64,000 nt of DNA from Nitriliruptorales bacterium. GTDB taxonomy: Bacteria > Actinomycetota > Nitriliruptoria > Nitriliruptorales > JAHWKO01. Each line of letters opens with the position of its first letter. Position 1 is the first letter of the stretch. The DNA lies in NCBI GenBank assembly GCA_046263195.1, contig JBHELG010000108.1, forward strand, positions 2,293-66,292, given 5' to 3'. The position numbers and the translations under genes are program-made. The notes below the pieces were generated by a model, which saw only the letters and a program-made list of their open reading frames with translations, was not told where the DNA came from and searched no databases. Below, piece by piece: positions 1 through 42,889 of the stretch.

Positions 1-429
1 CCTCGCGACCCCGGGAACGCCGGGGCCGGCCCAGTGCGGCTCGTCCCAGAAGAGGCGGTCTGTCCCGGCCTCGATCGCTGCTTGGGTCCAGGTCCGCATG
101 TAGCTGCGGAACTCCGGTCGGTTGAGGCAGGCCGCCCCTACCCGCCGCCCGTCGTCGAGTACCTGGCCGAGCTCTGGACGAGCCGCCGTGAAGCGGCTCT
201 CCGCCTCACCGCCGAATACGAGGCCCACTCCCCACGGGTCCAACTGCACCTCCAGTCCCGCCTCGTGAGAACTGGCCACGATCCGTTCGATCGTGCGGGG
301 GTAGTACGCGAAGTCGTTCTCCGAGAAGGTGTGCAGCACGCCGCTGAAGCCTCGCGCCGCGAGGCCCTCCATGTCCGCTGCGGCGTGACGCAGGATGCGA
401 TTGCCGAAATATGCCGCGCCGATGGTCAC
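1..429 (-). CDS. Partial CDS (first 143 codons; continues past window start); uncharacterised, possibly TIM-barrel glycoside-hydrolase-like
   Basis: Absent from the ORF track because it runs off the edge. The reverse frame from GTG 429-427 is open to base 1: VTIGAAYFGNRILRHAAADMEGLAARGFSGVLHTFSENDFAYYPRTIERIVASSHEAGLEVQLDPWGVGLVFGGEAESRF...AIEAGTDRLFWDEPHWAGPG. Nearly every codon ends in G/C. The GTG overlaps the TGA of the upstream gene (GTGA, 426-429). The function guess rests only on the FWDEP (NEP-like) motif and the general look of the sequence. Confidence 0.5.
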   Translation of the reverse strand, partial: MTIGAAYFGNRILRHAAADMEGLAARGFSGVLHTFSENDFAYYPRTIERIVASSHEAGLEVQLDPWGVGLVFGGEAESRFTAARPELGQVLDDGRRVGAACLNRPEFRSYMRTWTQAAIEAGTDRLFWDEPHWAGPGVPGVAR

Positions 430-1463
430 TTCGAGTCCCACCCTCCCGTCGCCTGCGGTGACGTCCCGGAGTCGTGACCGCCTGGGCGCGTCCGCGGGTG
501 GAAGCTGAGCCCAGCGTCGGTGATCTCCGTGAGGAGCGAGCCCCAACGCTCCCGCTCACGGGCAGGGTCGACGAGCCATCGCAGCCCCTCGACCCAGGTC
601 CTCAGAGTCGTGCGGAAGGCGCCGTCGCGTTCAATGCGCGACAGCAGGTGGCGGAGGGCACGTGGGTCGCCGACAGGGAAGTAGCCGGGGTAATCCTCAC
701 CGAGCAGGCCGATGGAACCGGAGATACGCGTGGAGACGACCGGCACCGACGCTGCCAGGGCCTCCGAGACGACGTTTGCGCCGCCCTCAAGGCGTGAAGT
801 CAGGACGAGCAGACGACTCCGGGCCAGGATCCGTAGTGCCTCGCCCCGCGGAAGCTCCCCCACCCACGCGTAGCGGGGGTTGCGCTCGCTTTCCGCTCGA
901 GCCCGGTCGGCCATTCCCGGCTCGATCTCCCCACCCGCATGCACCACCTGGATCCTCGACTCTTCCGGGAGGTCACGTACGGCCTGGGCGGCGATGAAGG
1001 GGTCCTTGACGGAGCGAAGATGCGCGAGCAGAACCACCTCGAAGACGTCGTCGCGAGGCTGAGCCGGTGGGATCGGCTTGACGGACTGTTCGATGACCCT
1101 GACTCGCGATCGCAGCGCCGGTGGTACCTGCTCCAGCCCCAAGCGTTGCAGCACGACGATTCGGGAAGCGAGCTCGACCGAGCGGCGGGCGGAGGGGGAG
1201 TTGTCGAGGTCGCCGTAGAGATCGGTTCCCGTCAGGGCCACCACCAGAGGGGCGTCGGGCTGCATGCTGCGAAAACGGGCGATGGAAGGAGCGCTGCGCC
1301 GGGCATGCAGAGCCACGAGCACGTCACACGACCGCCCCTCGTACGCCTCGACCACAACCGCGTCGTGACCGAGCTCACACAACAGCTCTCGCCAGCGCAG
1401 GGCGGTTACACGGTTTCCGCTGTTGGTTCCCAGCGGGGCCGGCGTGACGATGCAGACCTTCAC
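426..1463 (-). CDS. senB: Glycosyltransferase, SenB-like selenosugar synthase (TIGR04348-type)
   Basis: Inside ORF 426..1865(-). Start placed at GTG 1463 (VKVCIVTPAPLGTNSGNRVTALRWRELLCELGH...), which overlaps the TGA of the EgtB-like gene (GTGA 1460-1463). The 134 upstream codons of the ORF overlap that gene and are Arg/Gly/Pro-rich noise. GT-B style C-terminus (LLVLTSRLEGGANVVSEALAASVPVVSTR). The SenB assignment comes from the N-terminal motif as I recall it plus context (EgtB-like gene and SelD nearby). Confidence 0.7.
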   Translation of the reverse strand: MKVCIVTPAPLGTNSGNRVTALRWRELLCELGHDAVVVEAYEGRSCDVLVALHARRSAPSIARFRSMQPDAPLVVALTGTDLYGDLDNSPSARRSVELASRIVVLQRLGLEQVPPALRSRVRVIEQSVKPIPPAQPRDDVFEVVLLAHLRSVKDPFIAAQAVRDLPEESRIQVVHAGGEIEPGMADRARAESERNPRYAWVGELPRGEALRILARSRLLVLTSRLEGGANVVSEALAASVPVVSTRISGSIGLLGEDYPGYFPVGDPRALRHLLSRIERDGAFRTTLRTWVEGLRWLVDPARERERWGSLLTEITDAGLSFHPRTRPGGHDSGTSPQATGGWDSK

Positions 1464-2782
1464 CTCGGCGCGCAGGTACGGAGTCCGGCAAAGACGTCTC
1501 GGCGGTCCGGTGTGAAGTAGTTGCGGTAGGTCGTGCGGACGTAGCGCGCGCGCGTCGCCCAGGCCCCGCCCCGCAACACCTTGCGGGTCCCGAACCACGG
1601 CTCCGAGTTGTCCCGATAGGCGTCCGGTTCGAAGTTCGGGTACGGCAGGAACGTGCTGGCCGTCCACTCCCACACGTTGCCGATCATCTGCCGGCAGCCG
1701 AAGGGGCTGTCGCCCGCCGGGAATGCCCCGACGTCGACGGTGCCCATGGATCGCCAATCGACGTTCGCCTGCTCGGGTCCGGGCTGGTCGTCGCCCCAGG
1801 GGTAACGTCGCTTGCGGGGAACACCTCCGCTCGTGTCCACGCCCCCCGTCGCGGCCAGTTCCCACTCCGCCTCGGTCGGCAGTCGCCTCCCCGCCCAGCG
1901 GCAGTACGCCTCGGCCTCATACCAGCAGACGTGGATGACCGGCCTGTTCGCCTCGAGGTCGACCCAGCTGTCGAAGTGGCGTCTCCGCCAGCCTCCTGGG
2001 TACCGGCGCCAGTAGACGGGGTGTTCGGCTTGCACGGCTCGGCGCCAGCGCCACCCCTCCGGGCTCCACAACTCCGCCCGCTCGTAGCCTCCGTCCGCCA
2101 CGAAAGCAGCGAACTCCTCCTGGGTCACCGCGGCCCGAGCGATCGCGAAAGGGGCGACATCGACCGGGTGGCCCCACTTCTCGTTGTCGTAGACGAACGG
2201 CTCAGCCCCAGTCGCGCCGAGCAGAAAGGAGCCGCCTGGCACGTCGACATCGCCTTCCAGTTTCCCGGCGACGAGCGCCTCCCCCGGGCCTGTTCCGCTC
2301 AGACCGTCGAGGTTGGGCGGTGCATAGCCCAGCGTCTGGCGCGTGTAGGTGATGGCCTCCGTGTGGGTGTCCTCGTGGAAGACCGTATACAGGGCGAAGT
2401 GTCGCACGACAGGGGAGGCATCGGACCGCGACAGTCGCGCCAAGACGCGGTCACGGACCTCGATCATGTAGTCGAGGGTCCTCTCGCGGGGGGGAAGGTC
2501 GAGGAACCAGCGCGTGTCGTGGGGAATCGCCGCCGAGTCCCACAGCGCATCGCAGTGGGGGATGAGGGGGGGCTCGCTCAGTGCGGAGCGCAGCAGGAAG
2601 CGCTCCTGGAACCAGGCGAGGTGCCCGATCTCCCACAACAGCGGGTTCACCGTGGCCAGCATCGGGCCGATGAGCTGTTCGTCGTCGAGGTCCGCCACGA
2701 GCTGCATGACCCGTTGACGGGCGTCGCGCACCCACTCAGCTAGGTCGGGGATCCACTCTGACCACGCCGCTGAGGCGCGCAC
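1460..2782 (-). CDS. senA: EgtB-family sulfoxide/selenoxide synthase (DinB_2 + FGE-sulfatase domains), SenA-like selenoneine synthase
   Basis: ORF 1460..2782(-), 440 aa. N-terminal DinB_2 domain with iron-ligand histidines (LWEIGHLAWF, FHEDTHTEA). C-terminal FGE-sulfatase fold (FVYDNEKWGHPV, WYEAEAYCRWAGRRLPTEAEWE, IGNVWEWT, RGGAWAT). GTG 2782 is preceded by AGGAGGAAG. SenA and EgtB cannot be told apart by eye; context favours SenA. Confidence 0.8.
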   Translation of the reverse strand: MRASAAWSEWIPDLAEWVRDARQRVMQLVADLDDEQLIGPMLATVNPLLWEIGHLAWFQERFLLRSALSEPPLIPHCDALWDSAAIPHDTRWFLDLPPRERTLDYMIEVRDRVLARLSRSDASPVVRHFALYTVFHEDTHTEAITYTRQTLGYAPPNLDGLSGTGPGEALVAGKLEGDVDVPGGSFLLGATGAEPFVYDNEKWGHPVDVAPFAIARAAVTQEEFAAFVADGGYERAELWSPEGWRWRRAVQAEHPVYWRRYPGGWRRRHFDSWVDLEANRPVIHVCWYEAEAYCRWAGRRLPTEAEWELAATGGVDTSGGVPRKRRYPWGDDQPGPEQANVDWRSMGTVDVGAFPAGDSPFGCRQMIGNVWEWTASTFLPYPNFEPDAYRDNSEPWFGTRKVLRGGAWATRARYVRTTYRNYFTPDRRDVFAGLRTCAPR

Positions 2783-2950
2783 CTACTTCCTCCTGACCGG
2801 TCCTAGCCGTCCGCTCGGGTTTACCCGCGCGTCACCTCTTGGCCACGACAAGGTGTCCGCTGAGTTTGGCATCCCCGCAGCGGACGGCCACCATAGCCCC
2901 CCATCGGTCCGGCTGTAGCCGCGCCGAGCCAGCCGGACCGTGGAGCCCAG

Positions 2951-3580
2951 GTGGAACAGTTCCTGACCGAGACCATCACCGAGACGGTCCTGCGTCACGG
3001 TTACGTCGCCGTGTTCGTGCTCATGGTCGCGGAGTCCGCCCTCATTCCGGTGCCGAGCGAGGTCACGATGCTCTTCGGCGGGGCGCTCGCGAATGTCGCT
3101 CTCGTCGAGCATCTGGGTGCGACGAGCGGACCGCTGAACTTCTGGATGGTTGGCCTGCTGGGCGCGATCGGCAACCTCGTCGGATCATGGATTGCGTACG
3201 CCATCGGAAGAACGGGGGGGCGGTCACTAGCCGAGCGGCTGGGCCGCTACCTCCTCATCCGCCACCACCATCTCGACCGCGCCGAGGTCTGGTTCGATCG
3301 CCATGGCAACGCCGCTGTCTTCGTCGGACGGCTACTGCCGGTGGTCCGCACCTTCATCAGCCTTCCTGCCGGCATCGCCGCCATGGGCTTCGTGCGCTTC
3401 TCCGTCTACACCTTCGTTGGCTGCGTCCCCTGGTCCTTGGGCCTGGCCGCGATCGGCTACGGGTTGGGCGCGAACTGGGAGAGGGTTGTGCCATGGTTCC
3501 GGCCGGTGAGCCTCGTGATCGCGGCGGCTGTGATCCTCGTCGCCATATGGTGGTTATACAACGCCGTCCTGGAGCGTTAA
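2951..3580 (+). CDS. DedA/SNARE-associated family inner-membrane protein
   Basis: ORF 2951..3580(+), 209 aa. GTG start with GGAG 5 nt upstream. Multi-TM protein with the typical DedA core (VAESALIPVPSEV, FDRHGNAAVFVGRLLPVVRTFISLPAGIAAM). Divergent from senA and directly upstream of selD. Confidence 0.8.
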   Translation: MEQFLTETITETVLRHGYVAVFVLMVAESALIPVPSEVTMLFGGALANVALVEHLGATSGPLNFWMVGLLGAIGNLVGSWIAYAIGRTGGRSLAERLGRYLLIRHHHLDRAEVWFDRHGNAAVFVGRLLPVVRTFISLPAGIAAMGFVRFSVYTFVGCVPWSLGLAAIGYGLGANWERVVPWFRPVSLVIAAAVILVAIWWLYNAVLER

Positions 3581-3706
3581 GGGACAGCAGGCTTCCACCA
3601 GCGGCTGGCTCGACGTCGATCGCGCTTCCCTGATCCCTAGACTCCCTCACTTGGGCGCTCCACCCGGCCCCTTCGGGGGCCTTCCCGGCGGCCCTACGGA
3701 GGTGTT

Positions 3707-4744
3707 GTGAACCCCACGACCCGGCGACTCACGGAGTACAGCCACGGCGCCGGCTGAGCGTGCAAGCTCGCCCCACGCGAGCTGGCGCAGGTCCTGCGCC
3801 ACCTGACCTCGGCCAGCCATCCAAACCTGCTGGTCGGCACCGAGACCGGCGATGACGCGGCAGTCTGGCGGCTCGACGACGAGCGCGCGCTCGTCGTCAC
3901 TGCGGACTTCATCACGCCGCTCGTCGACGATGCCAGGACCTGGGGACGGATCGCGGCCATCAACTCAGCCTCCGACGTCTATGCCATGGGAGGACGTCCC
4001 ATCCTCGCCCTCAACCTCGTGGGATGGAACACGGCGGAGCTGCCCACTGACCTCCTCGACGAGGTGCTCGCCGGAGCTGACGAGGCCGCCGTCGAGGGTG
4101 GGTGGGTGACGGTCGGCGGTCACACCGTCGACGACCCCGAGCCGAAGTTCGGCCTGGCGGTGGTCGGAGAGGTGCGCCCCGACCGCCTGCTGAAGAACTC
4201 GGGGCTGCGGGACGGGGATGTGCTCGTGCTCACGAAGCCGCTGGGCGTGGGAATCATCGCCACCGCGTTGAAGCGCGACGCCGCAGCGGTGGAGGTGGTC
4301 GAATCGGCGGTCGCCTCCATGCTGCGATCAAACGCCGCAGCGTCACAGGCTGCGCTCGCAGCGGGAGCGACCGGCGCGACTGACGTCACCGGGTTCGGGC
4401 TGCTCGGGCACCTCGGCAAGATGGCCGAGGTATCGGGGGTCGACGCGACCATCCACACCGCCGCCGTGCCGATGCTGGCGGGAGTCCGCGAACTCGCCGC
4501 GGCTGGCTATATCCCCGGCGGGACCCGCCGTAACCTCGAGTGGGTACGCGACCGCCTGGTCGTTGACGCGGTCGACGAGGTGACCCTTGTGCTCCTGGCG
4601 GACGCGCAGACGTCGGGCGGGTTGGTGTTCGGTGTGTCAGCTTCCGAGGCGGATAGGACGCTGGCCGTTCTGCGCGACGGGGGGGATGCGGCCGTGGTGA
4701 TCGGTGAAGCTCGTGGCGGAGCCGGCCGACTCATCCTGCGTTGA
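3707..4744 (+). CDS. selD: Selenophosphate synthetase SelD (SenC-like), predicted selenoprotein with in-frame TGA (Sec) at 3755-3757
   Basis: The ORF track gives only 3986..4744, the C-terminal 252 aa (DVYAMGGRPI, GGHTVDDPEPKFGLAVVG, LTKPLGVG, TDVTGFGLLGHL, AQTSGGL). The same frame is open back to GTG 3707 (GGAGG at 3698-3702) except for TGA 3755-3757. It reads VNPTTRRLTEYSHGAG-U-ACKLAPRELAQVLRHL, colinear with E. coli SelD RLTQYSHGAGCGCKI, with the TGA at the Cys17 position. Length is 345 codons versus 347 aa in E. coli. Confidence 0.8.
3760..3788 (+). promoter_or_regulatory. Candidate bacterial SECIS hairpin immediately 3' of the selD UGA
   Basis: The stem AGCUCGC (3765-3771) pairs with GCGAGCU (3777-3783) around the loop CCCAC. 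It is extended by 4 more pairs (3760-3763 with 3885-3888 mis-numbering avoided: 3760-3763 pair with 3785-3788) across one A/G mismatch. The hairpin starts 3 nt after the UGA. Structure only; I cannot score it against a SECIS model. Confidence 0.4.
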
Positions 4745-4831
4745 CGTGCCGCGGGGGTGTCACGCGATCGGCGCTGGATCGTTGGAGTAGCGGACAGTCA
4801 TCAGCCCATCCCGCGTGAACGGAGACCAGTC

Positions 4832-5761
4832 GTGGCGGATGTCAAGGTCATCTACATCCTTGGCTACGCGCGCGGCGGCAGCACGATCCTCGGCAACATC
4901 CTGGGCGAGCAGGATGGCTTCTTCCACGCCGGGGAGCTCTGCTACCTCTGGAGCCGCGGCAACCGGGGCGAGCGATCCCGCCGCTGCGGCTGCGGGCTGC
5001 GGGTACCCGACTGTCCCGTATGGAGCCCGGTGCTGTCCTCTCTCCTGTCGGGTCCTAACGACGCACTCGCTGCCGCGGACGGGGAGGAGCGGGTCCGCTC
5101 CCGCTCAGGATGGCCGCTGGTTTGGGCTCCTTCCCGGCGTACCGAGGCGCGCTTCGCCCCCTTTCTCGACCTGACCGAGCGTCTCTACCGCCGGGTCTTG
5201 GACGTCACTGGCGCCCGCGTCATCGTCGACTCGTCGAAGAACCCGCGATACGGGGCGCTGCTCGCCATGATCCCCGCTTTCGATGTTCGCTTCGTTCACT
5301 TGGTCCGCGACCCGCGGGCGATGGTCTACTCGCGGCAGCGCAGGCGGATGGACCGTGAAGGAGCGGGGGCCCGTATCCACAAGGGCACTCTCGCGAAGGA
5401 CGCGTTGGAGTGGGCGGGGAAGAACCTCGAGGCCGAGGTGGTGCGGCGGCGAAGTTCGACCCCGACGCCGCTCGTTCGGTACGAGGATTTCAGCCGTCAG
5501 CCTGCGACCGTGGTCGAACAGGTTCTTGACGCGGTCGACGAGCCGCAGGCGCCCGTCGCCTTCCTGACCTCGGACGCTGTGCAGTTGGGCACGAACCACA
5601 CCTGCGGCGGCAACAATCGTGTGCGCGCACACAGTGGCCCCGTACACATACGGCAAGATACGGCTTGGCTCGAGGTCATCCCCCCCGCCCACCGCCAGAC
5701 CGTGGCTTGGCTGACCCTCCCCGTGCTGCGCCGCTACGGCTACCCTCTGCGGGTTTCCTGA
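4832..5761 (+). CDS. Sulfotransferase family protein (PAPS-dependent type)
   Basis: ORF 4757..5761(+). Preferred start is GTG 4832 (GGAGA 6 nt upstream); the alternative is GTG 4757. N-terminal 5'-PSB loop ILGYARGGSTILG, 3'-PB region VHLVRDPRAMVYSRQRR, Cys cluster RRCGCGLRVPDCPVW. Lies 87 nt downstream of selD on the same strand. Confidence 0.7.
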   Translation: MADVKVIYILGYARGGSTILGNILGEQDGFFHAGELCYLWSRGNRGERSRRCGCGLRVPDCPVWSPVLSSLLSGPNDALAAADGEERVRSRSGWPLVWAPSRRTEARFAPFLDLTERLYRRVLDVTGARVIVDSSKNPRYGALLAMIPAFDVRFVHLVRDPRAMVYSRQRRRMDREGAGARIHKGTLAKDALEWAGKNLEAEVVRRRSSTPTPLVRYEDFSRQPATVVEQVLDAVDEPQAPVAFLTSDAVQLGTNHTCGGNNRVRAHSGPVHIRQDTAWLEVIPPAHRQTVAWLTLPVLRRYGYPLRVS

Positions 5762-5889: not shown

Positions 5890-6119
5890 TCCATCACCTG
5901 TCGCTACAAGAGACGGGTGATGGACACATCGGTCGGCCGCTCCTGCCCTCACCCCGTCGCCGGGTACGCCCGGCGACTGCGTGTGTCCGTCTCACACCCC
6001 GTTCTGAGCCTCCTCCTGCTCATCCTCCTTTGATGCCGCGGCGCCGTCCCGCCCCATACGACGGCGACTGCGGAGGAATCTTCACCGGGGATGGGGAAGC
6101 TGGCATGTACAGGAGGAGG
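5890..6119 (+). promoter_or_regulatory. leuA leader region: Leu-rich leader peptide ORF (5920 or 5983 to 6033) plus hairpins and an anti-Shine-Dalgarno match
   Basis: A short ORF ends ...HPVLSLLLLILL-TGA at 6031-6033, with 7 Leu in its last 9 codons. CCTCCTCCTG (6009-6018) is the exact complement of CAGGAGGAGG (6110-6119), the leuA SD. Hairpins lie at 5890-5924 (13 bp) and 6036-6073. Confidence 0.5.
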
Positions 6120-6126
6120 AAAGCGA

Positions 6127-7752
6127 ATGGGAACCGTCAACGTTGGCGAGCATCCGGACCTTGATGCGATCAGGGGCGCTGTCGGTCACGACGTCACCAT
6201 CTTCGACACGACCCTGCGGGACGGCGAACAGGCTCCGGGGATTTCCCTCGACGCCCGCGAGAAGGTCGAGATTGCAACGCAGCTCGCACGCTTGAACGTC
6301 GACGTGGTAGAGGCGGGATTTCCCGCCGCAAGCAACGGGGACTTCGCGGCGGTGAAAGCGGTTGCCGAAGAAGTGGGCGCCAGCGACGAGGAGGGCACGC
6401 CACCCGTCATTGCTGCGCTCGCCCGCTGCGTGGACTCCGACATCGAGCGTGCCGCGAAGGCCATCGCCCCCGCTCGACGCAACCGCCTCCACGTCTTCAT
6501 CTCCTCGTCGGAGATCCACCGCATTCATATGCTGCATGCCTCGGAGCAGGACGTCCTCGAGCGAGCGGTGCGAGCCGTCCAGCTCGCGAGGAGCTTCAGC
6601 GAAGACGTCGAGTTCAGTCCCCAGGACGCTACGAGAACCGACTTCGCCTTCCTCGTGGATCTCGTGGCTGCGGCGGTCGAGGCCGGCGCCACGACCATCA
6701 ATATTCCCGACACGGTCGGGTACGCGCTTCCGCACGACTTCGGTCGCACAATCGCGGAGTTGCACTATCGGGTTCCCGCCATCCGTGAGCGCGGGGTGGT
6801 GGTCTCGGTCCACTGCCACAACGACCTCGGCCTCGCCGTCGCGAACTCGCTCGAAGCTGTCCGCAACGGTGCGCGGCAGGTCGAAGTCGCGGTGAACGGG
6901 ATCGGGGAGCGGGCCGGCAACTGCTCCCTCGAAGAGGTCGTCATGGCGATCAGGACACGGGCCGACCTGCTCGACGTCGGTACCGGGGTCAACACGACCG
7001 AGATAACTCGCACCTCCCGACTCGTCAGCACCCTGACCGGCTACTCGGTGCAGCGCAACAAGGCGGTGGTTGGAGCGAACGCCTTCGCACACGAGTCAGG
7101 CATTCACCAGCACGGAGTGCTGCAGGAACGTCAGACGTACGAGATCATGCGGACGGAGGATGTCGGTGCCGAAGGCTCGCAGATCGTGCTCGGAAAGCAC
7201 AGTGGTCGGCATGCCTTCCGCAAGGCGGTCAGCGAGCTCGGCTTCGAGCTGAACGAGGACGAACTGTCCCGGGCCTTCCTGCGGTTCAAGGATCTGACCG
7301 ACCGCAAGAAGGAGGTCGATGAGCGCGACTTGGAAGCCATCGTCTCCGCCGAGACCCACGTCACGAGTGAGGACAGCTACGAGCTCCTCTCGCTGACGGT
7401 AGCCGGCGGGACGACCGCGGCCCCATGCGCCACGGTCGAAGTTCGCGGTGCGGACGGAGTGATACGCACGGCCACCGCGACGGGCGATGGCATGGTGGAC
7501 GCAGCCTGCGGGGCGATCCGGGCCGCGCTCGGAAGAAACGGCATCCGCCTGGTCTCCTTCGAGGTCGCAGCTGTGACAGAGGGGGTCGACGCCCTCGGTG
7601 ACGTGACCGTGCAGGTCGAGGTGGAGGACGGCTCGCGTTTCACCGGGCGCGGCGTTTCCACCGACATCGTCGAGGCGAGCGCCCGAGCCTATATCGATGC
7701 CTTCAACCGGTCCCTGAGGCTGAAGCCCAGGGCGGGGGAGTTCCGGCCGTGA
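6127..7752 (+). CDS. leuA: 2-isopropylmalate synthase
   Basis: ORF 6091..7752(+). Start moved to ATG 6127 behind AGGAGGAGGA. HMGL-like N-terminus [13 protein letters not shown], metal site [21 protein letters not shown], and a C-terminal LeuA regulatory domain. Confidence 0.9.
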
Positions 7753-9215
7753 CGGCCCAACGACGACACGGGGGTGTCTCCAGAGAGCCAAAGACGCTGG
7801 TCGAGAAGATCTGGGATCGCCATGTCGTCTCTACGGAGCGGGACGGTCCTGATCTCCTCTACGTCGACCTTCACCTCGTGCACGAGGTGACGAGCCCACA
7901 GGCGTTCGACGCGTTGCGGCAAGCGGGGCGGCGGGTTCGTCGCCCCGACCTCACGCTGGCGACCGTCGACCACAACGTACCCACCGACCCTGAATCCGTG
8001 CGGGGCCTGCGACCGCTCGCGGACGAGCTGTCGCGAGCTCAAATGGACGCGCTCGGGCGCAACTGCGCCGAGTTCGGGATCCGACTCTTCCCAATGGGAT
8101 CACCCAACCAGGGTATCGTGCACGTAATCGGCCCTGAGCTCGGCCTGACCCAGCCGGGACTCGTCATCGTCTGCGGCGATTCGCATACAGCCACCCACGG
8201 CGCCTTCGGTGCCCTCGCCTTCGGGATCGGCACGAGCGAGGTCGAACACGTCCTTGCCACCCAGACGCTGCCGCAGCGCCGGCCGAAGGCGATGGCGATC
8301 GAGGTGGACGGCGAACGTCCCTTCGGGGTGACGGCAAAGGACGTCATCCTGGCGATCATTCGTCGCGTCGGCGTGGATGGCGGCATCGGCCACGTCATCG
8401 AGTACCGCGGCGAGGTCATCCGCGGCCTCTCCATGGAGGAACGGATGACGGTGTGCAACATGTCCATCGAGGCCGGAGCAAGGGCGGGTCTCATCGCCCC
8501 CGACGAGACGACCTTCACCTATCTGAAAGACCGGCCCTACGCCCCCAAGGGGGTGGCCTGGGAAGAGGCGGTCGAGGCCTGGCGGGCCTTGCCGAGCGAC
8601 GCGGATGCGACCTACGACCGCTTCGTCCGCCTCGACGCGGCCGACCTGGAGCCCTATGTGACCTGGGGTACTACGCCGGCCCAGTCCGTGCCGGTGACCG
8701 GCCAGGTGCCACAGCCAGAGGACGCCGCGGACGAGGCCACCGCCGAGCAGTGGCGGCGTGCCCTTGCGTACATGGGCCTAGACGGGGGTGAGCAGGTCGC
8801 CGACCTGCGCGTCGACCGGGTGTTCATCGGATCGTGCACGAACGCCCGACTTTCGGATTTGCGGGCGGCCGCTCGGGTCGCGGTGGGCAAGACAGTCGCC
8901 CCGGGGGTACGGGCGATGGTCGTGCCGGGCTCGGGCCTCGTAAAGGCTGCCGCCGAAGCCGAGGGACTCGACGTCATTTTCCGAACGGCGGGCTTCGAGT
9001 GGCGCGAGCCCGGCTGCTCGATGTGCCTGGGGATGAACCCCGACGTCCTCGGGCCTGGCGAACGCTGCGCGTCGACGTCGAACCGCAACTTCGAGGGGCG
9101 CCAGGGCGCCGGCGGCCGCACGCACCTCGTCAGCCCCGTCATGGCAGCTGCCGCAGCGATCCACGGCCGCTTCGTCGACGTTCGGGACGTCGCGGACGAG
9201 GAGGTCCTCACATGA
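7749..9215 (+). CDS. leuC: 3-isopropylmalate dehydratase large subunit
   Basis: ORF 7749..9215(+). The GTG overlaps the leuA TGA (GTGA). Aconitase-family motifs [33 protein letters not shown]. Confidence 0.9.
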
Positions 9216-22846: not shown

Positions 22847-23245
22847 TCAGCCCGAGGGATCCTCGAGGACTCCTGCCACCACCTCCGCCAGAGCGGGTGA
22901 GCGCGACACCAGAGCAAGGTCGAGGCGGGCCTCACCCGTAGCTACCCACCACAGCCGCGCCACGTCGTCTGCCTCCCGCGGGAGCTTGCGCAGCCAGTCG
23001 AGTGCCTCCTCGGCGTCCCCGTCGTGCCGAGCGCACCACGATTGAAGGCCGAAGCGCAAGGCGCAGCGGCGACCGAGTGCCCTATAGGGGGTCGGCCCGC
23101 AGGTTGGCACCAACCGCGCTTCGTTGCCGCAGTGGTCGCATTCTCCGGCGTCCACGGCCCGCGGTCCGAGGTCGTCGCGGTCGAGCCACGGGTAATGGGC
23201 GCGCAGCGCCTCCCGCAGCACCTGCTTGTCGAACGGCCGCTGCAT
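22847..23245 (-). CDS. Hypothetical Cys-containing protein
   Basis: ORF 22847..23245(-), 132 aa. Codon bias is consistent with coding. CDHCG...C...C pattern. Divergent from leuB. No family recognised. Confidence 0.45.
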
Positions 23246-23325
23246 GGGGCGAGCCTAGGTCCTGGTGCACCGCAGCGATAGCAACCAAGGCTTCTAGCAT
23301 TCGCCTTCGTGGCGAGGAGGTGCGG

Positions 23326-24408
23326 GTGGCGCGTTACCGGATCGCGGTGATCGGAGGGGACGGCATCGGACCAGAGGTCGTCAGCGAGGGTTTGAAGGTG
23401 CTCGACGCGGTCGCCGATGCCGAGGGCTTCGAGGTTGAGAAGGTCGAGTTCGACCTCGGCGCCCACCGCTACCGCTCCAGGGGCGATCTGCTCGACGACA
23501 CAACGCTCGGCGAGCTACGTGCCTTCGACGCCATCTACCTCGGGGCGGTCGGACACCCAGACGTCCCACCCGGAGTGCTCGAGCGGGGCCTGCTCCTCAC
23601 GCTCCGGTTCGCCTTCGACCTGTTCGTCAACCTGCGGCCCGTTCGACTCTACCCGGGGGTCGCCTCTCCGATCGCGGGGCTCGTGCCCGGACGGTGTGAC
23701 CTTGTGGTCGTCCGGGAGAACACCGAGGGCGTCTACGCCGGTGCCGGTGGCTTCCTCTACCGCGGCACGCATGCGGAGGTCGCCACCCAGGAGTCGCTGA
23801 ACACGCGTCGTGGCGTCGAGCGAGTCGTGCGCTACGCCTTCCAAATCGCGGAACAGCGCCGTCGCCGGCTCACCCTCTGCCACAAGACGAACGTGCTGCT
23901 CTATGCGGGCGACCTGTGGTCACGGGTCGTAGCCGAGGTGGGAGCGGACTACCCGGAGGTCACCCACGACTACGTCCACGTCGACGCCATGTGCCTCTAC
24001 CTCGTCACCCAACCTGAGCGCTTCGACGTGGTCGTGACCGACAACCTCTTCGGTGACATCGTGACCGACCTCGGGGCGGCTGTGCAGGGTGGCATGGGCC
24101 TGGCCGCCTCGGCGAACCTCGACCCGAGTCGTCGGGCCCCATCGCTGTTCGAGCCTGTCCATGGCTCCGCCCCGGATATCGCGGGCAGGGGCCGGGCTGA
24201 TCCAACCGCTGCGGTCCTCAGTCTGGCGATGATGCTCGACTTCCTCGGTGAACGGAGGGCTGCCGCACGAGTCGAGCAGGCCGTCTCCGCCTGGCTGGCT
24301 CAGCATGGCGAGGATTCGGCTCGGTACTCGACCTCCCAAGTCGGCGACCGTCTCGCGGAGCTCGCAGGCACCTCGGGCGGGCGGTCCGATTTTGGGGTGG
24401 GGTCGTAG
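23326..24408 (+). CDS. leuB: 3-isopropylmalate dehydrogenase
   Basis: In ORF 23002..24408. GTG 23326 lies 5 nt after GAGGAGG ([18 protein letters not shown]). Signature [23 protein letters not shown]. Confidence 0.85.
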
Positions 24409-24529
24409 TGACGGTCTTGGGCCTGTCAGAACCGGCCCGAGAAGCCGGCGCTTGTTCGCGCCGAAGAGTCTAAGCTCGCCTCGGCGGCGCCAGCGGCCGA
24501 ACAACGCCACGGACGACGAGGAGTCGGAG

Positions 24530-25459
24530 ATGCCCTTCCCCGCCGCTGGCTACATCTGGATGGACGGTGAGCTCGTGCCCTGGGATGAGGCGACCGTCCA
24601 CGTGCTCACACCCACTCTCCACTACGGCTACGGCGTGTTCGAGGGGATACGCGCCTACGCCACCGACCGTGGCCCGGCGGTCTTCCATCTCGAGGCCCAC
24701 GTCTCCCGGTTGTTCGGCTCGGCGAAGATCTACCCGCCGCTCGACGAGATCCCCTACACCCCCTCCGACATCGTCACGGCGGTGAAGGCCACCATCCGAG
24801 CCAACGGGCACGAAGGCGGCTGCTACATACGGCCGATCGTCTACCTCGGATATGGCGAGATGGGTGTCAACCCGCTGCCCTCCAGGGCGCAGGTTGCGAT
24901 CGCGACCTGGGAGTGGGGGGCCTACCTCGGAGAGGAGGCCTTCGATCGCGGGGTGCGGGTCATGACCTCGTCGTTCCGTCGTATCGGCAAGAACACGATC
25001 CCTCCTGTGGCGAAAGCCTGCGGGCAATACCTCAACAGTTCCCTCGCCAAGGTGGAGGCGGTGCGGGCCGGTTACGACGAGGCGATCATGCTGAGCGAGG
25101 AGGGCTTCATCTCGGAGGGCACCGGCGAGAACGTCTTCATCGTCCGCGACGGCGTGCTGATCACCCCGCCATTGTGCGACGGCCCTCTACCCGGCATCAC
25201 CCGGGCCAGCACCATGCAGATCGCTCGTGACCTCGACATCCCGGTACGGGAGACGCACCTGGCCCGCAGCGACCTCTACCTCGCCGAGGAGGCCTTCCTG
25301 ACCGGTACTGCAGCCGAGGTCGTGCCCATCCGCTCCGCCGACGGTCGGGAGATCGGCGAACGAGGCCCGATCACCGCCCGCATCCAGTCCACCTTCGTCG
25401 ATCTCGTGCACGGAAAGATCGACCGCTACAAGGACTGGCTCGCCTTCGTCTACGAGTAG
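24530..25459 (+). CDS. ilvE: Branched-chain amino acid aminotransferase (class IV)
   Basis: In ORF 24248..25459. ATG 24530 sits behind GAGGAG (MPFPAAGYIWMDGELVPW). Motifs YGYGVFEGIRAY, EGFISEGTGENVFIV. Confidence 0.85.
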   Translation: MPFPAAGYIWMDGELVPWDEATVHVLTPTLHYGYGVFEGIRAYATDRGPAVFHLEAHVSRLFGSAKIYPPLDEIPYTPSDIVTAVKATIRANGHEGGCYIRPIVYLGYGEMGVNPLPSRAQVAIATWEWGAYLGEEAFDRGVRVMTSSFRRIGKNTIPPVAKACGQYLNSSLAKVEAVRAGYDEAIMLSEEGFISEGTGENVFIVRDGVLITPPLCDGPLPGITRASTMQIARDLDIPVRETHLARSDLYLAEEAFLTGTAAEVVPIRSADGREIGERGPITARIQSTFVDLVHGKIDRYKDWLAFVYE

Positions 25460-31270: not shown

Positions 31271-31436
31271 ATGACCTGCGATCGCGTCCGGCAGCAGACG
31301 TTGGAGAGCGGCGGCAACGTCCGTCGCACCTCAGCGTTGGGTTCCCGACGCATAGCTCCCACCACCAGCACCACCATCATCATCGCCTGTCTCCCGTAGC
31401 CCGACTGACGCACCGGGCTGCGGGAGCGGCCCGGTG
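31271..31436 (+). promoter_or_regulatory. cimA leader: Thr/Ile-rich leader peptide ORF (31271..31399) and two mutually exclusive hairpins
   Basis: ATG 31271 lies 5 nt after GGGAG. The 42-codon ORF ends ...RRIAPTTSTTIIIACLP-TAG. Hairpin A is 31391-31403/31414-31426 (13 bp, and contains the leader stop codon). Hairpin B is 31411-31418/31429-31436 (8 bp). The two share bases 31414-31418. Confidence 0.5.
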
Positions 31437-31486
31437 AAGATCCGGCGCCTCGCCCGCACCCGGTGTCAAACCGAGAGGACGACCCG

Positions 31487-33100
31487 GTGAGCGAGCAGGA
31501 CCAACTCGGCCGCATGGGGCCGCGATTTGCCCTCTACGACACCACCCTGCGTGACGGCACCCAGCGCAGAGGTGTCAACCTCACGGTGGACGACAAGCTG
31601 AAGGTCGCTCGGCAGATTGACGAGCTGGGCGTTCACTTCATCGAGGGTGGTTGGCCGGGTGCGAACCCGAAGGACACCGAGTTCTTCCGCCGCGCAGCCG
31701 AGGGCGACCTGGTCCTGAGGCACGCGACGCTGACAGCCTTCGGTGCCACCCGGAACGTGCGCAAGAGGGCCGAGGACGACCCCTTGCTCCGGGCGCTGCT
31801 CGACGCTGGCACGCCGGTCGTGTGTATCGTGGGGAAGTCCTGGGGCTATCACGTCGAGGGAGCTCTTGGGGTTTCTCTCGAGCAGAACCTGGCGATGGTC
31901 GCCGAGACCGTCGCCTTCCTGACATCGGCCGGGCGCCGCGTCTTCTTCGACGCCGAGCACTTCTTCGACGGCTATGCGCGCGACCGCGCCTACACGCGGG
32001 ACGTCGCCCTGGTGGCGGCCGAGGCCGGCGCCGAGTGCGTCGTCCTCTGTGACACGAACGGTGGCGCGATGCCCTGGGCCGTGCAGCCGGCGGTGGCGGA
32101 CATGGTCACCATGCTTCCCTGTGAAGTTGGAACGCACTTCCACGACGACGGTGGCTGTGCCGTCGCAAACTCGCTCATCAGTGTCGAGGCAGGAGCGGTT
32201 CACGTGCAGGGGACGGCGAACGGGCTGGGTGAACGCTGCGGCAACGCCAACCTGTTCACCGTCCTCGCTGACCTCCAACTCAAGCGTGGCCTCGAGCTGG
32301 TGCCGCCCGAGCGGCTCGTCCGCATGACGACCGTGGCCCACGCGGTGGCCGAGCTCTGCAACCAGGCCCCCCCGATGGGACAGCCCTACGTCGGGTCAGG
32401 CGCCTTCGCGCACAAAGCCGGCCTGCACGTCTCGGCGCTCGCGAAAGCCGCCGACATGTACCAGCACGTTGACCCGTCTCTCGTCGGCAACCACCAGCAC
32501 CTCGTCGTCAGCGAACTGGCCGGACGGGCCACCATCGCGCTCAAGGCCCGGGCGCTCGGCCTCGAGCTGGACGACGCAACCTCCACCCGCGTGCTGGAGG
32601 AGGTCAAGCGACGGGAACATCTCGGCTGGAGCTACGACGCGGCAGACGCATCCTTCGCGCTCCTATTGCTGCGCCTGACCGGACGGCTGGGCGAGGAGCC
32701 GTTCCGTCTGCAGCATTTCCGGGTGACGGTCGGAGGGGGCGGGGCCGGCTCCAACTCGGAGGCGGTCGTGGCGGTCGAGATCGAAGGTCAGCGCAGGCTC
32801 GGCGCCGGAGAAGGCAATGGTCCTGTTGACGCACTCGACCACGCCTTCCGCAACGCCGCCAACGGGACCTGGCCCGATCTCGACCGCGTCCAGCTCGCCG
32901 ACTACAAGGTCCGCATCCTCGAAGCATCCCACGGCACCGACGCCGTCACCCGGGTGCTCGTGACCACCACGGATGGGAAGGAAACCTGGGACACGGTAGG
33001 CGTCCACCCGAACATCGTGGAAGCTTCCTGGATGGCGCTTGCTGACGCGTACGCTTGGGCGCTCGCACGCGAATCGTGGCCGGGACGAGAGCTCCAGTAG
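31487..33100 (+). CDS. cimA: (R)-citramalate synthase (LeuA-family, TIGR00977-like)
   Basis: In ORF 31463..33100. GTG 31487 lies 7 nt after GAGAGGA; alternatives are GTG 31463 and ATG 31514. Motifs YDTTLRDGTQRRGVNLTVDDKLKVARQIDELGVHFIEGGWPGANPKD and HFHDDGGCAVANS, plus a C-terminal LeuA-type regulatory domain. Confidence 0.85.
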   Translation: MSEQDQLGRMGPRFALYDTTLRDGTQRRGVNLTVDDKLKVARQIDELGVHFIEGGWPGANPKDTEFFRRAAEGDLVLRHATLTAFGATRNVRKRAEDDPLLRALLDAGTPVVCIVGKSWGYHVEGALGVSLEQNLAMVAETVAFLTSAGRRVFFDAEHFFDGYARDRAYTRDVALVAAEAGAECVVLCDTNGGAMPWAVQPAVADMVTMLPCEVGTHFHDDGGCAVANSLISVEAGAVHVQGTANGLGERCGNANLFTVLADLQLKRGLELVPPERLVRMTTVAHAVAELCNQAPPMGQPYVGSGAFAHKAGLHVSALAKAADMYQHVDPSLVGNHQHLVVSELAGRATIALKARALGLELDDATSTRVLEEVKRREHLGWSYDAADASFALLLLRLTGRLGEEPFRLQHFRVTVGGGGAGSNSEAVVAVEIEGQRRLGAGEGNGPVDALDHAFRNAANGTWPDLDRVQLADYKVRILEASHGTDAVTRVLVTTTDGKETWDTVGVHPNIVEASWMALADAYAWALARESWPGRELQ

Positions 33101-38182: not shown

Positions 38183-38254
38183 TCGGGGGTGGTGTAATCG
38201 GTAACACGACGGGTTCTGGCCCCGTTATTGAGGGTTCGAGTCCTTCCCCCCGAG
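38183..38254 (+). tRNA. tRNA-Gln (anticodon CTG)
   Basis: Cloverleaf folded by hand. Acceptor TCGGGGG/CCCCCGA (U1-A72, typical of tRNA-Gln). D-stem GTGT/ACAC. Anticodon stem ACGGG/CCCGT with loop TTCTGGC. T-arm GAGGG-TTCGAGT-CCTTC. No encoded CCA. Confidence 0.85.
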
Positions 38255-38292
38255 CGTGATCGGTCGCGTGGGAGATCATGCGACCGACGAAT

Positions 38293-38365
38293 GGCCCCGT
38301 CGTCTAGCGGCCCAGGACGTCGCCCTCTCAAGGCGGTAACGCCGGTTCAAATCCGGTCGGGGCTA
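38293..38365 (+). tRNA. tRNA-Glu (anticodon CTC)
   Basis: Colinear with E. coli tRNA-Glu. Acceptor GGCCCCG/CGGGGCT. D-arm GTCTAGCGGCCCAGGAC. Anticodon stem TCGCC/GGCGG with loop CTCTCAA. T-arm GCCGG-TTCAAAT-CCGGT. No encoded CCA. Confidence 0.85.
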
Positions 38366-38395
38366 CGTAGGATGACCACCTCTCAGGTGGCCGCA

Positions 38396-39340
38396 TCAGC
38401 GCGTCCCGAAGGCGCTTTTTCGCCGCCGGCGCCTCGCTCGCCCCTTCGGGGAGAGCAGTTCCGGCCGGTAGCGGCGCATGATGGCGAGCGCCCAGTCGAC
38501 CTTGTCCTTCACCCGTTGACCCTTCGGGTGGGAGGTGGACCACAGCTCCAGGTTCTCGAGTCGGTTGTCCGTGCGGATCCCGTTGATGTGATGGACGACC
38601 TCGTCCGGTTCGAGCGGGCGGCCGAGGTGTCTCGCCATCACAAGTCGGTGTTCGAGGATCGGGGTCTCGCCGTTCGTGAGGTGACGTAGCTCCGCCGGTA
38701 CGGGGACCTTCCAGTAGCCGTGGCTGAGGCACCCTTCACCTGTTGCCTCGCGAATCGGAACGTCGGCGAGCACGTCGCCGTGTCGCTTGAGTCGGTCAGC
38801 GTGTGTTCGACACAGGCCGTGCCCCACGGTGTCCCGGGGACAGTCCTGCACGGTGCAGGTCTCCGGTTGGCGACGCCGCTCGAGCGGGACATGCGCCTGC
38901 ACATCCCCCGTGCGGTACCAGCGGAGGTAGTGGCCGTGGCACCAACCCCGCTCCGTCGCTGGGTTGGGACAGTCCTCGATAACACACTCGTCGGGCATCT
39001 CCCGCGGGTCGGCGACTTCGCCGCGCCGGCGCCAACGCTTGTAGTGCTTCTCACACCAGCCGAGGGCGTATGGCGTCGTCGTGCAGTCCTCGGCCCGACA
39101 GATCGGGGACTGCTTTCGCCGCGACAAGGGCTCGTCGGCGCGGACGTCGCCGGTACGGAGCCAGCGGAAGTAGTGCCCACTGCACCACCCGCGCGCAAAG
39201 ACGTCGTTGCCGCAGCAACCCACCTGGCAGGTCTGGATGTCAGCGCCGGCAGGTGACAGCGGACTGCGCTGGCGCCCCCCGCTCCGCTGCCCTGAAGGGC
39301 GGTTCGGCATTGTGCTCCACGTCTCGCTCGACGAAGGCAT
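38396..39340 (-). CDS. HNH endonuclease with four N-terminal Cys-rich repeats
   Basis: In ORF 38396..39508(-). The start is uncertain: ATG 39340, ATG 39310 (the latter 4 nt after GGAG) or 39508. HNH motif VVHHINGIRTDNRLENLELW. Upstream are four repeats of C-x2-(D/C)C-x8-10-G(W/L)C-x2-H-x3-(W/L)-x3-G(D/E)V. Confidence 0.7.
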   Translation of the reverse strand: MPSSSETWSTMPNRPSGQRSGGRQRSPLSPAGADIQTCQVGCCGNDVFARGWCSGHYFRWLRTGDVRADEPLSRRKQSPICRAEDCTTTPYALGWCEKHYKRWRRRGEVADPREMPDECVIEDCPNPATERGWCHGHYLRWYRTGDVQAHVPLERRRQPETCTVQDCPRDTVGHGLCRTHADRLKRHGDVLADVPIREATGEGCLSHGYWKVPVPAELRHLTNGETPILEHRLVMARHLGRPLEPDEVVHHINGIRTDNRLENLELWSTSHPKGQRVKDKVDWALAIMRRYRPELLSPKGRARRRRRKSAFGTR

Positions 39341-39623
39341 GTTCGATATTTGCGGAGGGGTGTGACAGGGACGGACCGACTCGTGCGTCCCTGCCAGTCC
39401 TGAGACTTGAGGGCGGGACGTCGAACCGGGCTTGCCCCCCCTCCTGTCGCGAAGCCATGAACACTCCAGTGTCACTATTGAGGCGAGGCGTATCGCCGTC
39501 GCGGGCACGTGCGGCCCGTAGTCCGAGCGCGCGGAAGAGGTCCCGGAGCGGGACGGAACGACGGATCACGAGTCCAAATCCGGGCCGCCCCGACCTGGCT
39601 GGCGGCGACAGAACCCGGCGGCG

Positions 39624-41980: not shown

Positions 41981-42889
41981 TCACGCACGGGCCCAGACCT
42001 CCTCCGCCCAGTTCCACGGCGTCGGGCCGCCCAGGGACCGGACGACCCCGAGCTCCGGCGCGAGCTCCCGTCGCAGTCGGCTGATCGTCTTCTCGTCAAT
42101 AGCCCAGAGCGCCGGGTCGAAATCTGACATGCGTCGCTGGGTCCAGCGACGTGCCCGGTCTTTGACCTCCGCCGACAGGAGCCGAGTCAGCGCCCGGTAC
42201 CAAGACGTGCGCTGCAGCCGCGCGATCGGAGGCAGCGTGGCGCTGGCGTCGAGCGTCGTATTGGCCGTCCAGTCGAAGTCGTGGGGAGCACGTTCGGGGT
42301 CTGCACCGATGTGTGCCACGGCTTGGCGCACGGTTTCGCTGCGTCGATCCCTCAGGTGCTCGGAGTAGCGCACGAGCAGCTGCGAGCTGTCGAAGTAGTC
42401 CAGGTAGCGTTCGAGCTGAGACCCATAGCGGCTCGGCGCGAGGTAACTGTCGTCCTCTTTGATCACCCGCATCAAAGGGCGCGTCTCGCGTCCACGAAGG
42501 AGCTGATGCCGATACTGAGAGACGACTCGCTCGATCGGGTCTCGGAGCAGATAGATGAGCCTGGCGTCGGGGATCGTCGCATGGATGAGAGAAGGTGCCC
42601 TTGTGAAGATGGGGTACTTGGTGTAGCTGGTTGACGCCTCGCCCAGGAGGGCACCCTTCGGGAGCCTCCCTCAACAGCTGCGCGTACCAGGCGAGGCCCG
42701 GTCCCAATTGCCCTCCGCCACGAAGAACTCGGGCTCCTTCGGGTTCGTGATGAACACGTCGGGATGGGATGCGAGGTAGGAGGCGAGACTGCTGGTTCCG
42801 GACTTCATCGCCCCGATGATGATGAAGTCCGGGAGTCTCAGAGAATCCTGCCCCAGACCGGTCCGCATCGAAGAAGCTTGCCCTGTCAT
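41981..42889 (-). pseudogene. Sulfotransferase disrupted by two compensating 1-nt indels (premature TGA at 42671-42673)
   Basis: ORFs 42671..42889 (N-terminus, PDFIIIGAMKSGTSSL PAPS loop) and 41981..42475 (C-terminus) share one frame. The conserved GLAWYAQLLREAPEG segment between them lies in a second frame (ORF 42096..42707). Adding one G at run 42697-42699 and removing one G at run 42654-42656 restores a continuous 302-aa sulfotransferase. Confidence 0.65.

Follow-up and report, generated by a model that had tools for sequence, protein, structure and literature searches.

A selD gene with an in-frame TGA in an actinobacterial selenoneine cluster is predicted to encode a selenocysteine-type selenophosphate synthetase

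The selD gene of this locus raises the question of where its protein begins and how an in-frame TGA near its 5' end is read. In the window, that is, the whole 64-kb stretch of DNA that was analysed, the six-frame ORF listing gave in the selD frame just 3986..4744, which starts at ATG and encodes 252 aa. A sequence-only reading had proposed that the same frame is open back to a GTG preceded by a GGAGG and is broken by a lone TGA. When 3707-4747 was translated, the product was found to be VNPTTRRLTEYSHGAG*ACKLAPRELAQVL... (also given as VNPTTRRLTEYSHGAG*ACKLAPRELAQVLRHL...). Its sole internal stop was TGA 3755-3757, and the proposed frame was confirmed. The full-length gene, at the SenC position, spans 3707..4744 on the + strand and comprises 345 codons, with a GTG start, a predicted Sec codon at position 17 and a stop TGA at 4742-4744. 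Its Shine-Dalgarno sequence, GGAGG, was read directly at 3698..3702 (+), 4 nt 5' of GTG 3707, where translation would start. The stretch recovered in this way, 3707-3985, amounts to 279 nt or 93 codons. The start context, GGAGGTGTT-GTG, was identical in L081, a relative of 85% identity, and when the 100 nt 5' of the selD start were printed side by side for the window and L081, there was no evident similarity beyond the Shine-Dalgarno context. The evidence set out below makes it very probable that selD 3707..4744 encodes a full-length Sec-type SelD that is decoded through a SECIS element.

The read-through protein was found to belong to the SelD family over its N-terminus as well. With the TGA read as Cys, it scored 369.3 bits against the TIGR00476 selD profile (cut-off 125), and residues 7-314 matched profile positions 1-310, the N-terminal loop included. 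The score of the read-through SelD against NF002098 was 352.3 bits (cut-off 299). In the alignment to E. coli SelD (PDB 3u0o), which covered residues 5-342, the numbering was identical, so that the TGA is position 17 and is followed by Cys19 and Lys20; this agrees with the earlier assignment of the TGA to Cys17 of the E. coli enzyme and of the next Cys and Lys to Cys19 and Lys20. The window loop SHGAG-U-ACK aligned to SHGAGCGCK of E. coli, and the Gly-rich loop with its UxxK/CxxK motif is therefore present. Moreover, the 93 recovered codons did supply the conserved segments attributed to them in the sequence-only reading, LLVGTETGDDAAVW compared to LLVGNETRDDAAVY in E. coli and TADFITPLVDD compared to TTDFFMPIVDN. 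By family score and alignment the selD product is a selenophosphate synthetase, and from these its synthesis of selenophosphate is predicted.

The loss of this N-terminus by ORF callers, also proposed beforehand, was seen both in the ORF listing of the window and in the protein databases. The five closest proteins among the database matches listed were 84-86% identical and were all N-truncated calls of 293-303 aa, and approximately 20 more of the listed matches, at approximately 70% identity, were N-truncated likewise. The best match was 86% identical and N-truncated, and the full-length sequence is therefore new to the protein collection searched. A U residue was found in none of the 120 database matches listed. 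Standard gene callers thus cut this SelD and its five closest database relatives to fragments without the catalytic loop, and because of such truncated calls, selenium-metabolism surveys that use called proteins miss or mis-score SelD/SenC genes of this type.

That gene callers give only truncated products for selD and its closest relatives would also be expected if the gene were a pseudogene, or if its functional product were just the 252-residue protein from ATG 3986. This is highly improbable. A protein that began at residue 94 would be missing residues 17, 19 and 20 with their Gly-rich loop, and also DDAAV and TADF, two conserved segments that have aligned counterparts in E. coli SelD, and ATG 3986 encodes an internal Met that is part of the conserved motif DVYAMGG. 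In the comparison of the window and L081, all 4 differences in the 16 codons before the UGA were synonymous, and in codons 18-93 there were 15 synonymous and 6 non-synonymous ones. Third positions accounted for 19 of the 25 nucleotide differences in codons 1-93 against L081 and for 24 of the 27 against L083. Divergence that is mostly synonymous and at third positions indicates that the 93 recovered codons, those before the UGA included, evolve as translated sequence, which stands against both the pseudogene and the short product.

The in-frame UGA, at 3755..3757 (+), is the predicted selenocysteine codon of residue 17, in the motif U-A-C-K (UxxK). To follow it among relatives, one genome per species was sampled, giving 80 related actinobacterial loci. 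The codon homologous to 3755-3757 was TGA in 66 of the 80, TGC in 12 and TGT in 2, and the sequence RLTxFSHGAG-[U/C]-xCKLAP was kept on both sides of it. The 66 TGA-type loci cover several actinobacterial classes, and the retention of the TGA in all of them is further evidence against the 252-residue product. This pattern of TGA and Cys over 80 loci is far beyond chance; the UGA is aligned to a conserved Cys and has TGA-bearing homologues elsewhere, as in a selenoprotein gene. The proposal that SelD is itself a predicted selenoprotein is accordingly borne out by the TGA/Cys pair at 66 and 14 of the 80 loci, respectively, and by Cys17 in E. coli.

In the close relatives L081-L084 (approximately 85% identity), the same TGA was present in 4 of 4, and the N-terminal peptide was nearly unchanged. 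L081 is a GenBank MAG, and L082, L083 and L084 come from three different sequencing runs; all are independent assemblies. A sequencing or assembly error, by which TGC or TGT had been recorded as TGA in the window, would need only one base change to give the Cys form known in 14 related loci. That such an error explains the TGA is scarcely conceivable, since the same TGA occurs in these four assemblies and in 66 more distant loci, and SECIS-type pairing (described below) is confined to TGA-type genes. Together, the conservation of the TGA and the coding-type divergence around it exclude both sequencing error and pseudogene for practical purposes.

A global reassignment of UGA was also considered and was rejected. 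TGA serves as the ordinary stop in 13 of the 23 family-supported genes of the window, selD itself among them, and UGA is therefore not globally reassigned in the source genome.

Variants of the Sec loop were observed in some of the relatives. The Pseudonocardiales MAGs L004, L005, L006 and L007 carry the loop SHCAG-U-AGK (e.g. L005:9950-10045) compared to the usual SHGAG-U-xCK, with Gly in place of Cys19 and Cys in place of Gly14, as though the partner cysteine had been relocated. A loop matching this variant, SHCAGCAAK, occurs in one Cys-type database protein. At L053:9998-10051 the motif was found to be U-AVK, without any Cys19.

The coding sequence 3' of the UGA was found to contain two hairpins. 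Hairpin 1, AGCUCGC-CCCAC-GCGAGCU, lies at 3765..3783 (+) and has an energy of -10.7 kcal/mol when folded alone. Hairpin 2, GGCGCAG-GUC-CUGCGCC, lies at 3784..3800 (+), has an energy of -11.3 kcal/mol and is the predicted bSECIS apical stem-loop; it consists of a 7-bp stem and a 3-nt loop, GUC, at 3791-3793, 33 nt after the UGA. The hairpins abut, with zero unpaired bases between them. With a ribosome at UGA 3755-3757, the downstream mRNA would be expected to fold into these two abutting hairpins.

In an ungapped alignment of 50 TGA-type sequences, 93.5% of the cells of both hairpins were in standard pairs, compared to 27-43% when the 3' partners were slid by 1-3 columns. Changes on both sides were found in 10 of the 15 pairs over both hairpins, and the covariation score was 0.220 compared to a shuffle mean of 0.103, a value that 0 of 500 shuffles reached. 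In hairpins 1 and 2 taken separately, the cells paired amounted to 91.8% and 95.4%, and the pairs changed on both sides to 5 of 8 and 5 of 7, respectively. The G and U of the hairpin 2 loop were invariant in 50/50 sequences. RNAalifold, run independently, returned the same two helices. When all 65 distinct TGA-type sequences were included, 94% of the cells in the hairpin columns were paired, compared to 61% in the 14 Cys-type genes, and the structure is thus both compensatory and TGA-specific, as in a selenoprotein gene. In one example, Gln-Val-Leu (CAG GUC CUG) alternates with His-Val-Val (CAC GUC GUG). Several of these compensations need coupled amino-acid changes, indicating that it is the RNA, rather than the protein, that is under selection.

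In the bSECIS model, a loop of 3-9 nt is carried on a stem of 4-16 bp, a G stands in the first two loop positions as G[G|U], the distance from the UGA to the loop is 16-37 nt and the MFE is <= -7.5 kcal/mol (PMC13188914). Hairpin 2 agrees with the model on 4 of 4 points, its distance of 33 nt being close to the top of the range. Hairpin 1 departs from it in the loop G and in the spacing (14 nt), and for this reason it is probably not the loop bound by SelB. On this comparison with the model, hairpin 2 would be the SECIS element and the site contacted by SelB, and hairpin 1 would be a structured spacer; binding of SelB there would allow Sec to be inserted at the UGA. When 3600-4000 was scanned against Rfam at E<=10, zero SECIS families and just chance matches of the miRNA/CRISPR type were returned, and the 66 nt that follow the UGA did not fold significantly more stably than shuffles of this GC-rich composition (z = -1.1). 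Given the unremarkable folding energy and the lack of an Rfam SECIS match, the case is built on covariation and on the points of the bSECIS model, not on stability.

Between the window and the close relatives L081, L083 and L084, the SECIS stems had 0 substitutions, and the two differences in 3755-3800 were both at unpaired positions. The unchanged stems fit an ongoing constraint, weakly when taken alone, as the same would occur by chance in approximately 7% of cases by a rough estimate that takes the stems to hold about 9 third-codon positions and the third-position difference rate to be 26%.

The closest point of comparison for hairpin 2 is the bSECIS of E. coli fdhF. Both are stem-loops just 3' of the Sec-UGA within the coding region, and in both a G-U opens a small apical loop; the apex GCAGGUCCUGC of hairpin 2 resembles GCAGGUCUGC of fdhF, a sequence that was verified in 5,419 E. 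coli genomes. In contrast to fdhF, in which the loop is approximately 18 nt after the UGA (counted on the sequence), the loop in the window is 33 nt after it, and the extra distance is filled by the second, independently covarying hairpin of 7-8 bp. Hairpin 2 also differs from fdhF in being without a bulged U in the upper stem.

The genes next to selD place it in a selenoneine cluster. The gene senA (selenoneine synthase) was found at 1460..2782 (-), divergent from selD, with 501.8 bits against NF041186 SenA (cut-off 420), and senB (selenosugar synthase) at 426..1463 (-), with 379.1 bits against TIGR04348 SenB (cut-off 300). The senB ORF is open to 1865 and the TIGR04348 match starts at residue 137 of this long ORF; senB likely starts at GTG 1463, a codon that overlaps the stop of senA within the sequence GTGA. 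The selD gene thus lies beside senA and senB, which are less than 1 kb upstream on the opposite strand, in the co-location of a sen-cluster SenC. It neither overlaps senB nor is co-transcribed with it, being on the opposite strand with a DedA-family gene between. This gene, at 2951..3580 (+) between senA and selD, encodes a DedA/VTT-domain membrane protein (Pfam VTT_dom, 90.8 bits), and its product scored 130.8 bits against the NCBIfam UptA-like family, below the cut-off of 250. A DedA/VTT gene at that position was absent in L081 and in every other locus compared. A link between proteins of the DedA family and the uptake of selenite has been described. The gene may be a selenium-related accessory gene, and its membership of the system is uncertain.

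The cluster is the three-gene selenoneine cluster of Kayrouz et al. (bioRxiv 10.1101/2022.04.13.486033), whose SenC, according to the retrieved passages of that preprint, is homologous to SelD and provides the selenophosphate used by SenB. In the same passages, SenC of Variovorax paradoxus is a SelD homologue beside senA (EgtB-like) and senB (TIGR04348), as in the window; it was found via the overlap of its ORF with senB, and its production in E. coli gave a high yield. Unlike the Variovorax paradoxus gene as presented there, the window selD is divergent from senA-senB, has a DedA-family gene between and carries a Sec-UGA. In none of the retrieved passages of bioRxiv 10.1101/2022.04.13.486033 is SenC called a selenoprotein. 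The Sec17 SelD of the window would act as SenC and supply selenophosphate to SenB and SenA; if it were the sole SelD of the cell, its selenophosphate would also go to Sec synthesis.

The senB-senA / selD layout was also found in L006, L011, L012, L035, L044, L052, L071 and L081, and sen genes were present in a different placement, or cut, in L014, L019, L030 and L082. Both senA and senB were near a TGA-type selD in L006, L011 (the cultured strain Actinomadura litoris NEAU-AAG5), L012, L014, L019, L030, L035, L044, L052, L071 and L081. With at least 11 sen-linked TGA-type loci other than that of the window, a Sec-type SenC is recurrent in Actinomycetota.

The main residual uncertainty is the Sec machinery of the source genome and of this sen-linked subset. 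The tRNA genes of the 64-kb window were tRNA-Gln and tRNA-Glu only, with no tRNA-Sec. A selA/selB family search gave no match among those window genes whose length would suffice for SelA or SelB, and tblastn with SelA and SelB of L058 against the 64-kb window gave nothing. Moreover, selA, selB and tRNA-Sec were found within 10 kb of none of the sen-linked TGA-type loci. At other TGA-type loci, the machinery was found next to selD. In L058, selB (TIGR00475, 246.9 bits) and selA (TIGR00474, 398.1 bits) are upstream of the TGA-type selD on the opposite strand and tRNA-Sec is directly 3' of it; selA, selB and tRNA-Sec adjoin the TGA-type selD likewise in L049 and L060, and selA and selB do so in L056 (Pseudonocardia asaccharolytica DSM 44247). 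The result for selA, selB and selC in the window covers 64 kb, too small a stretch for their absence to be informative, and these genes are presumably located elsewhere in the source genome.

The lack of selA, selB and selC in the window and beside every sen-linked TGA-type locus would also be seen if the Sec machinery had been lost. The UGA would then terminate translation, or would be suppressed at a low level by a near-cognate tRNA (Trp/Cys), the SECIS would be a relic, and little or no SelD/SenC would be produced. The synthesis of selenoneine itself is independent of Sec decoding in the pathway as given in the retrieved passages (bioRxiv 10.1101/2022.04.13.486033), which leaves room for such a loss. 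Still, a loss of the machinery is very unlikely. In the window, as in the four close-relative loci, the TGA is retained along with two intact hairpins and an intact N-terminal peptide; the stems are free of substitutions, compared to approximately one quarter of the codons differing synonymously elsewhere in selD among the window and its close relatives; the covariation over 50 sequences reflects sustained selection on the structure; and, as noted, the absence from 64 kb does not count. These points favour a full-length SelD in which Sec is inserted at the UGA.

Among prokaryotic selenoprotein families, SelD is described as the second most widespread; it has been verified experimentally and has the Sec motif UxxK (PMC13188914), and mammalian SPS2 is also a selenoprotein (PMC1717018). 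The need of Sec-type SelD/SPS2 for selenium in its own synthesis is known (PMC13188914, PMC1717018). The window SelD agrees with Sec-type SelD/SPS2 (TIGR00476) in family score, in the Sec at the site of E. coli Cys17, in the Gly-rich loop and Lys20, in the motif U-A-C-K and in this self-dependence on selenium: as a Sec-type SelD, it would depend on selenium for its own synthesis. It differs in nothing essential, other than that the window copy belongs to a selenoneine cluster instead of lying next to selA/selB/selC.

Because Sec-type SelD is a widespread prokaryotic selenoprotein family, the result for the window selD amounts to a sound re-annotation rather than a discovery. The idea of SelD/SPS2 autoregulation dates from the mid-1990s, and since the principle of selenium dependence has been known for SelD/SPS2 for decades, no new question is opened by it here. 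What is specific to this locus is modest, namely a new sequence, the SenC position in a selenoneine cluster and a SECIS that follows another covarying hairpin. A Sec-type SelD is present in at least a dozen selenoneine clusters of actinobacteria, which implies that Sec decoding and selenoneine synthesis are combined in these organisms and that the supply of selenophosphate is made dependent on selenium itself. The value of the result is that of an annotation correction and of an indication that a Sec-type SelD is often used in the sen clusters of actinobacteria, neither of which would surprise a specialist.

It is doubtful that, in this actinobacterial lineage, the Sec-type SelD of the sen cluster is the only selenophosphate synthetase of the cell and gates selenoneine synthesis via Sec decoding, with the tandem hairpins tuning the switch. 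If such gating were true, at low selenium the UGA would terminate translation after 16 codons and no selenium would be diverted to the small molecule. In that case the conserved tandem arrangement, with the spacer hairpin stacked on the SECIS hairpin, could be a distinct SECIS architecture.

Several further features of the region were observed. In the 126-nt gap between the DedA stop and the selD start, a GC-rich perfect hairpin, GGCCCC-TTCG-GGGGCC, lies at 3667-3682 (+). A promoter and terminator scan of 2700-4900 called nothing, and the terminator scan was silent on this hairpin because it is without a T-run; possible roles for the hairpin are those of a leader or a terminator-like element. 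At 4757-5761 (+), 13 nt past the selD stop and in the same reading frame, lies a gene of the Sulfotransfer_3 family (Pfam, 41.8 bits), which was absent between selD and leuA in L081 and L083. A scan of the window for further selenoprotein genes, based on in-frame TGA with coding-like flanks, gave three matches, two of which were rejected as antisense artefacts; the third, at 42671 (-), has an in-frame TGA with coding-like flanks. An ORF with an HNH_3 endonuclease domain at 38396-39565 (-) adjoins tRNA-Gln at 38183-38255 and tRNA-Glu at 38293-38366 and may be a mobile-element remnant. The sen genes and selD are surrounded by the branched-chain amino-acid genes leuA, leuC, leuB, ilvE and citramalate synthase (6091-9215, 22942-25459 and 31409-33100). 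The order selD-leuA-leuC is common to the window and L081, and L083 shares selD-leuA and the following cut gene.
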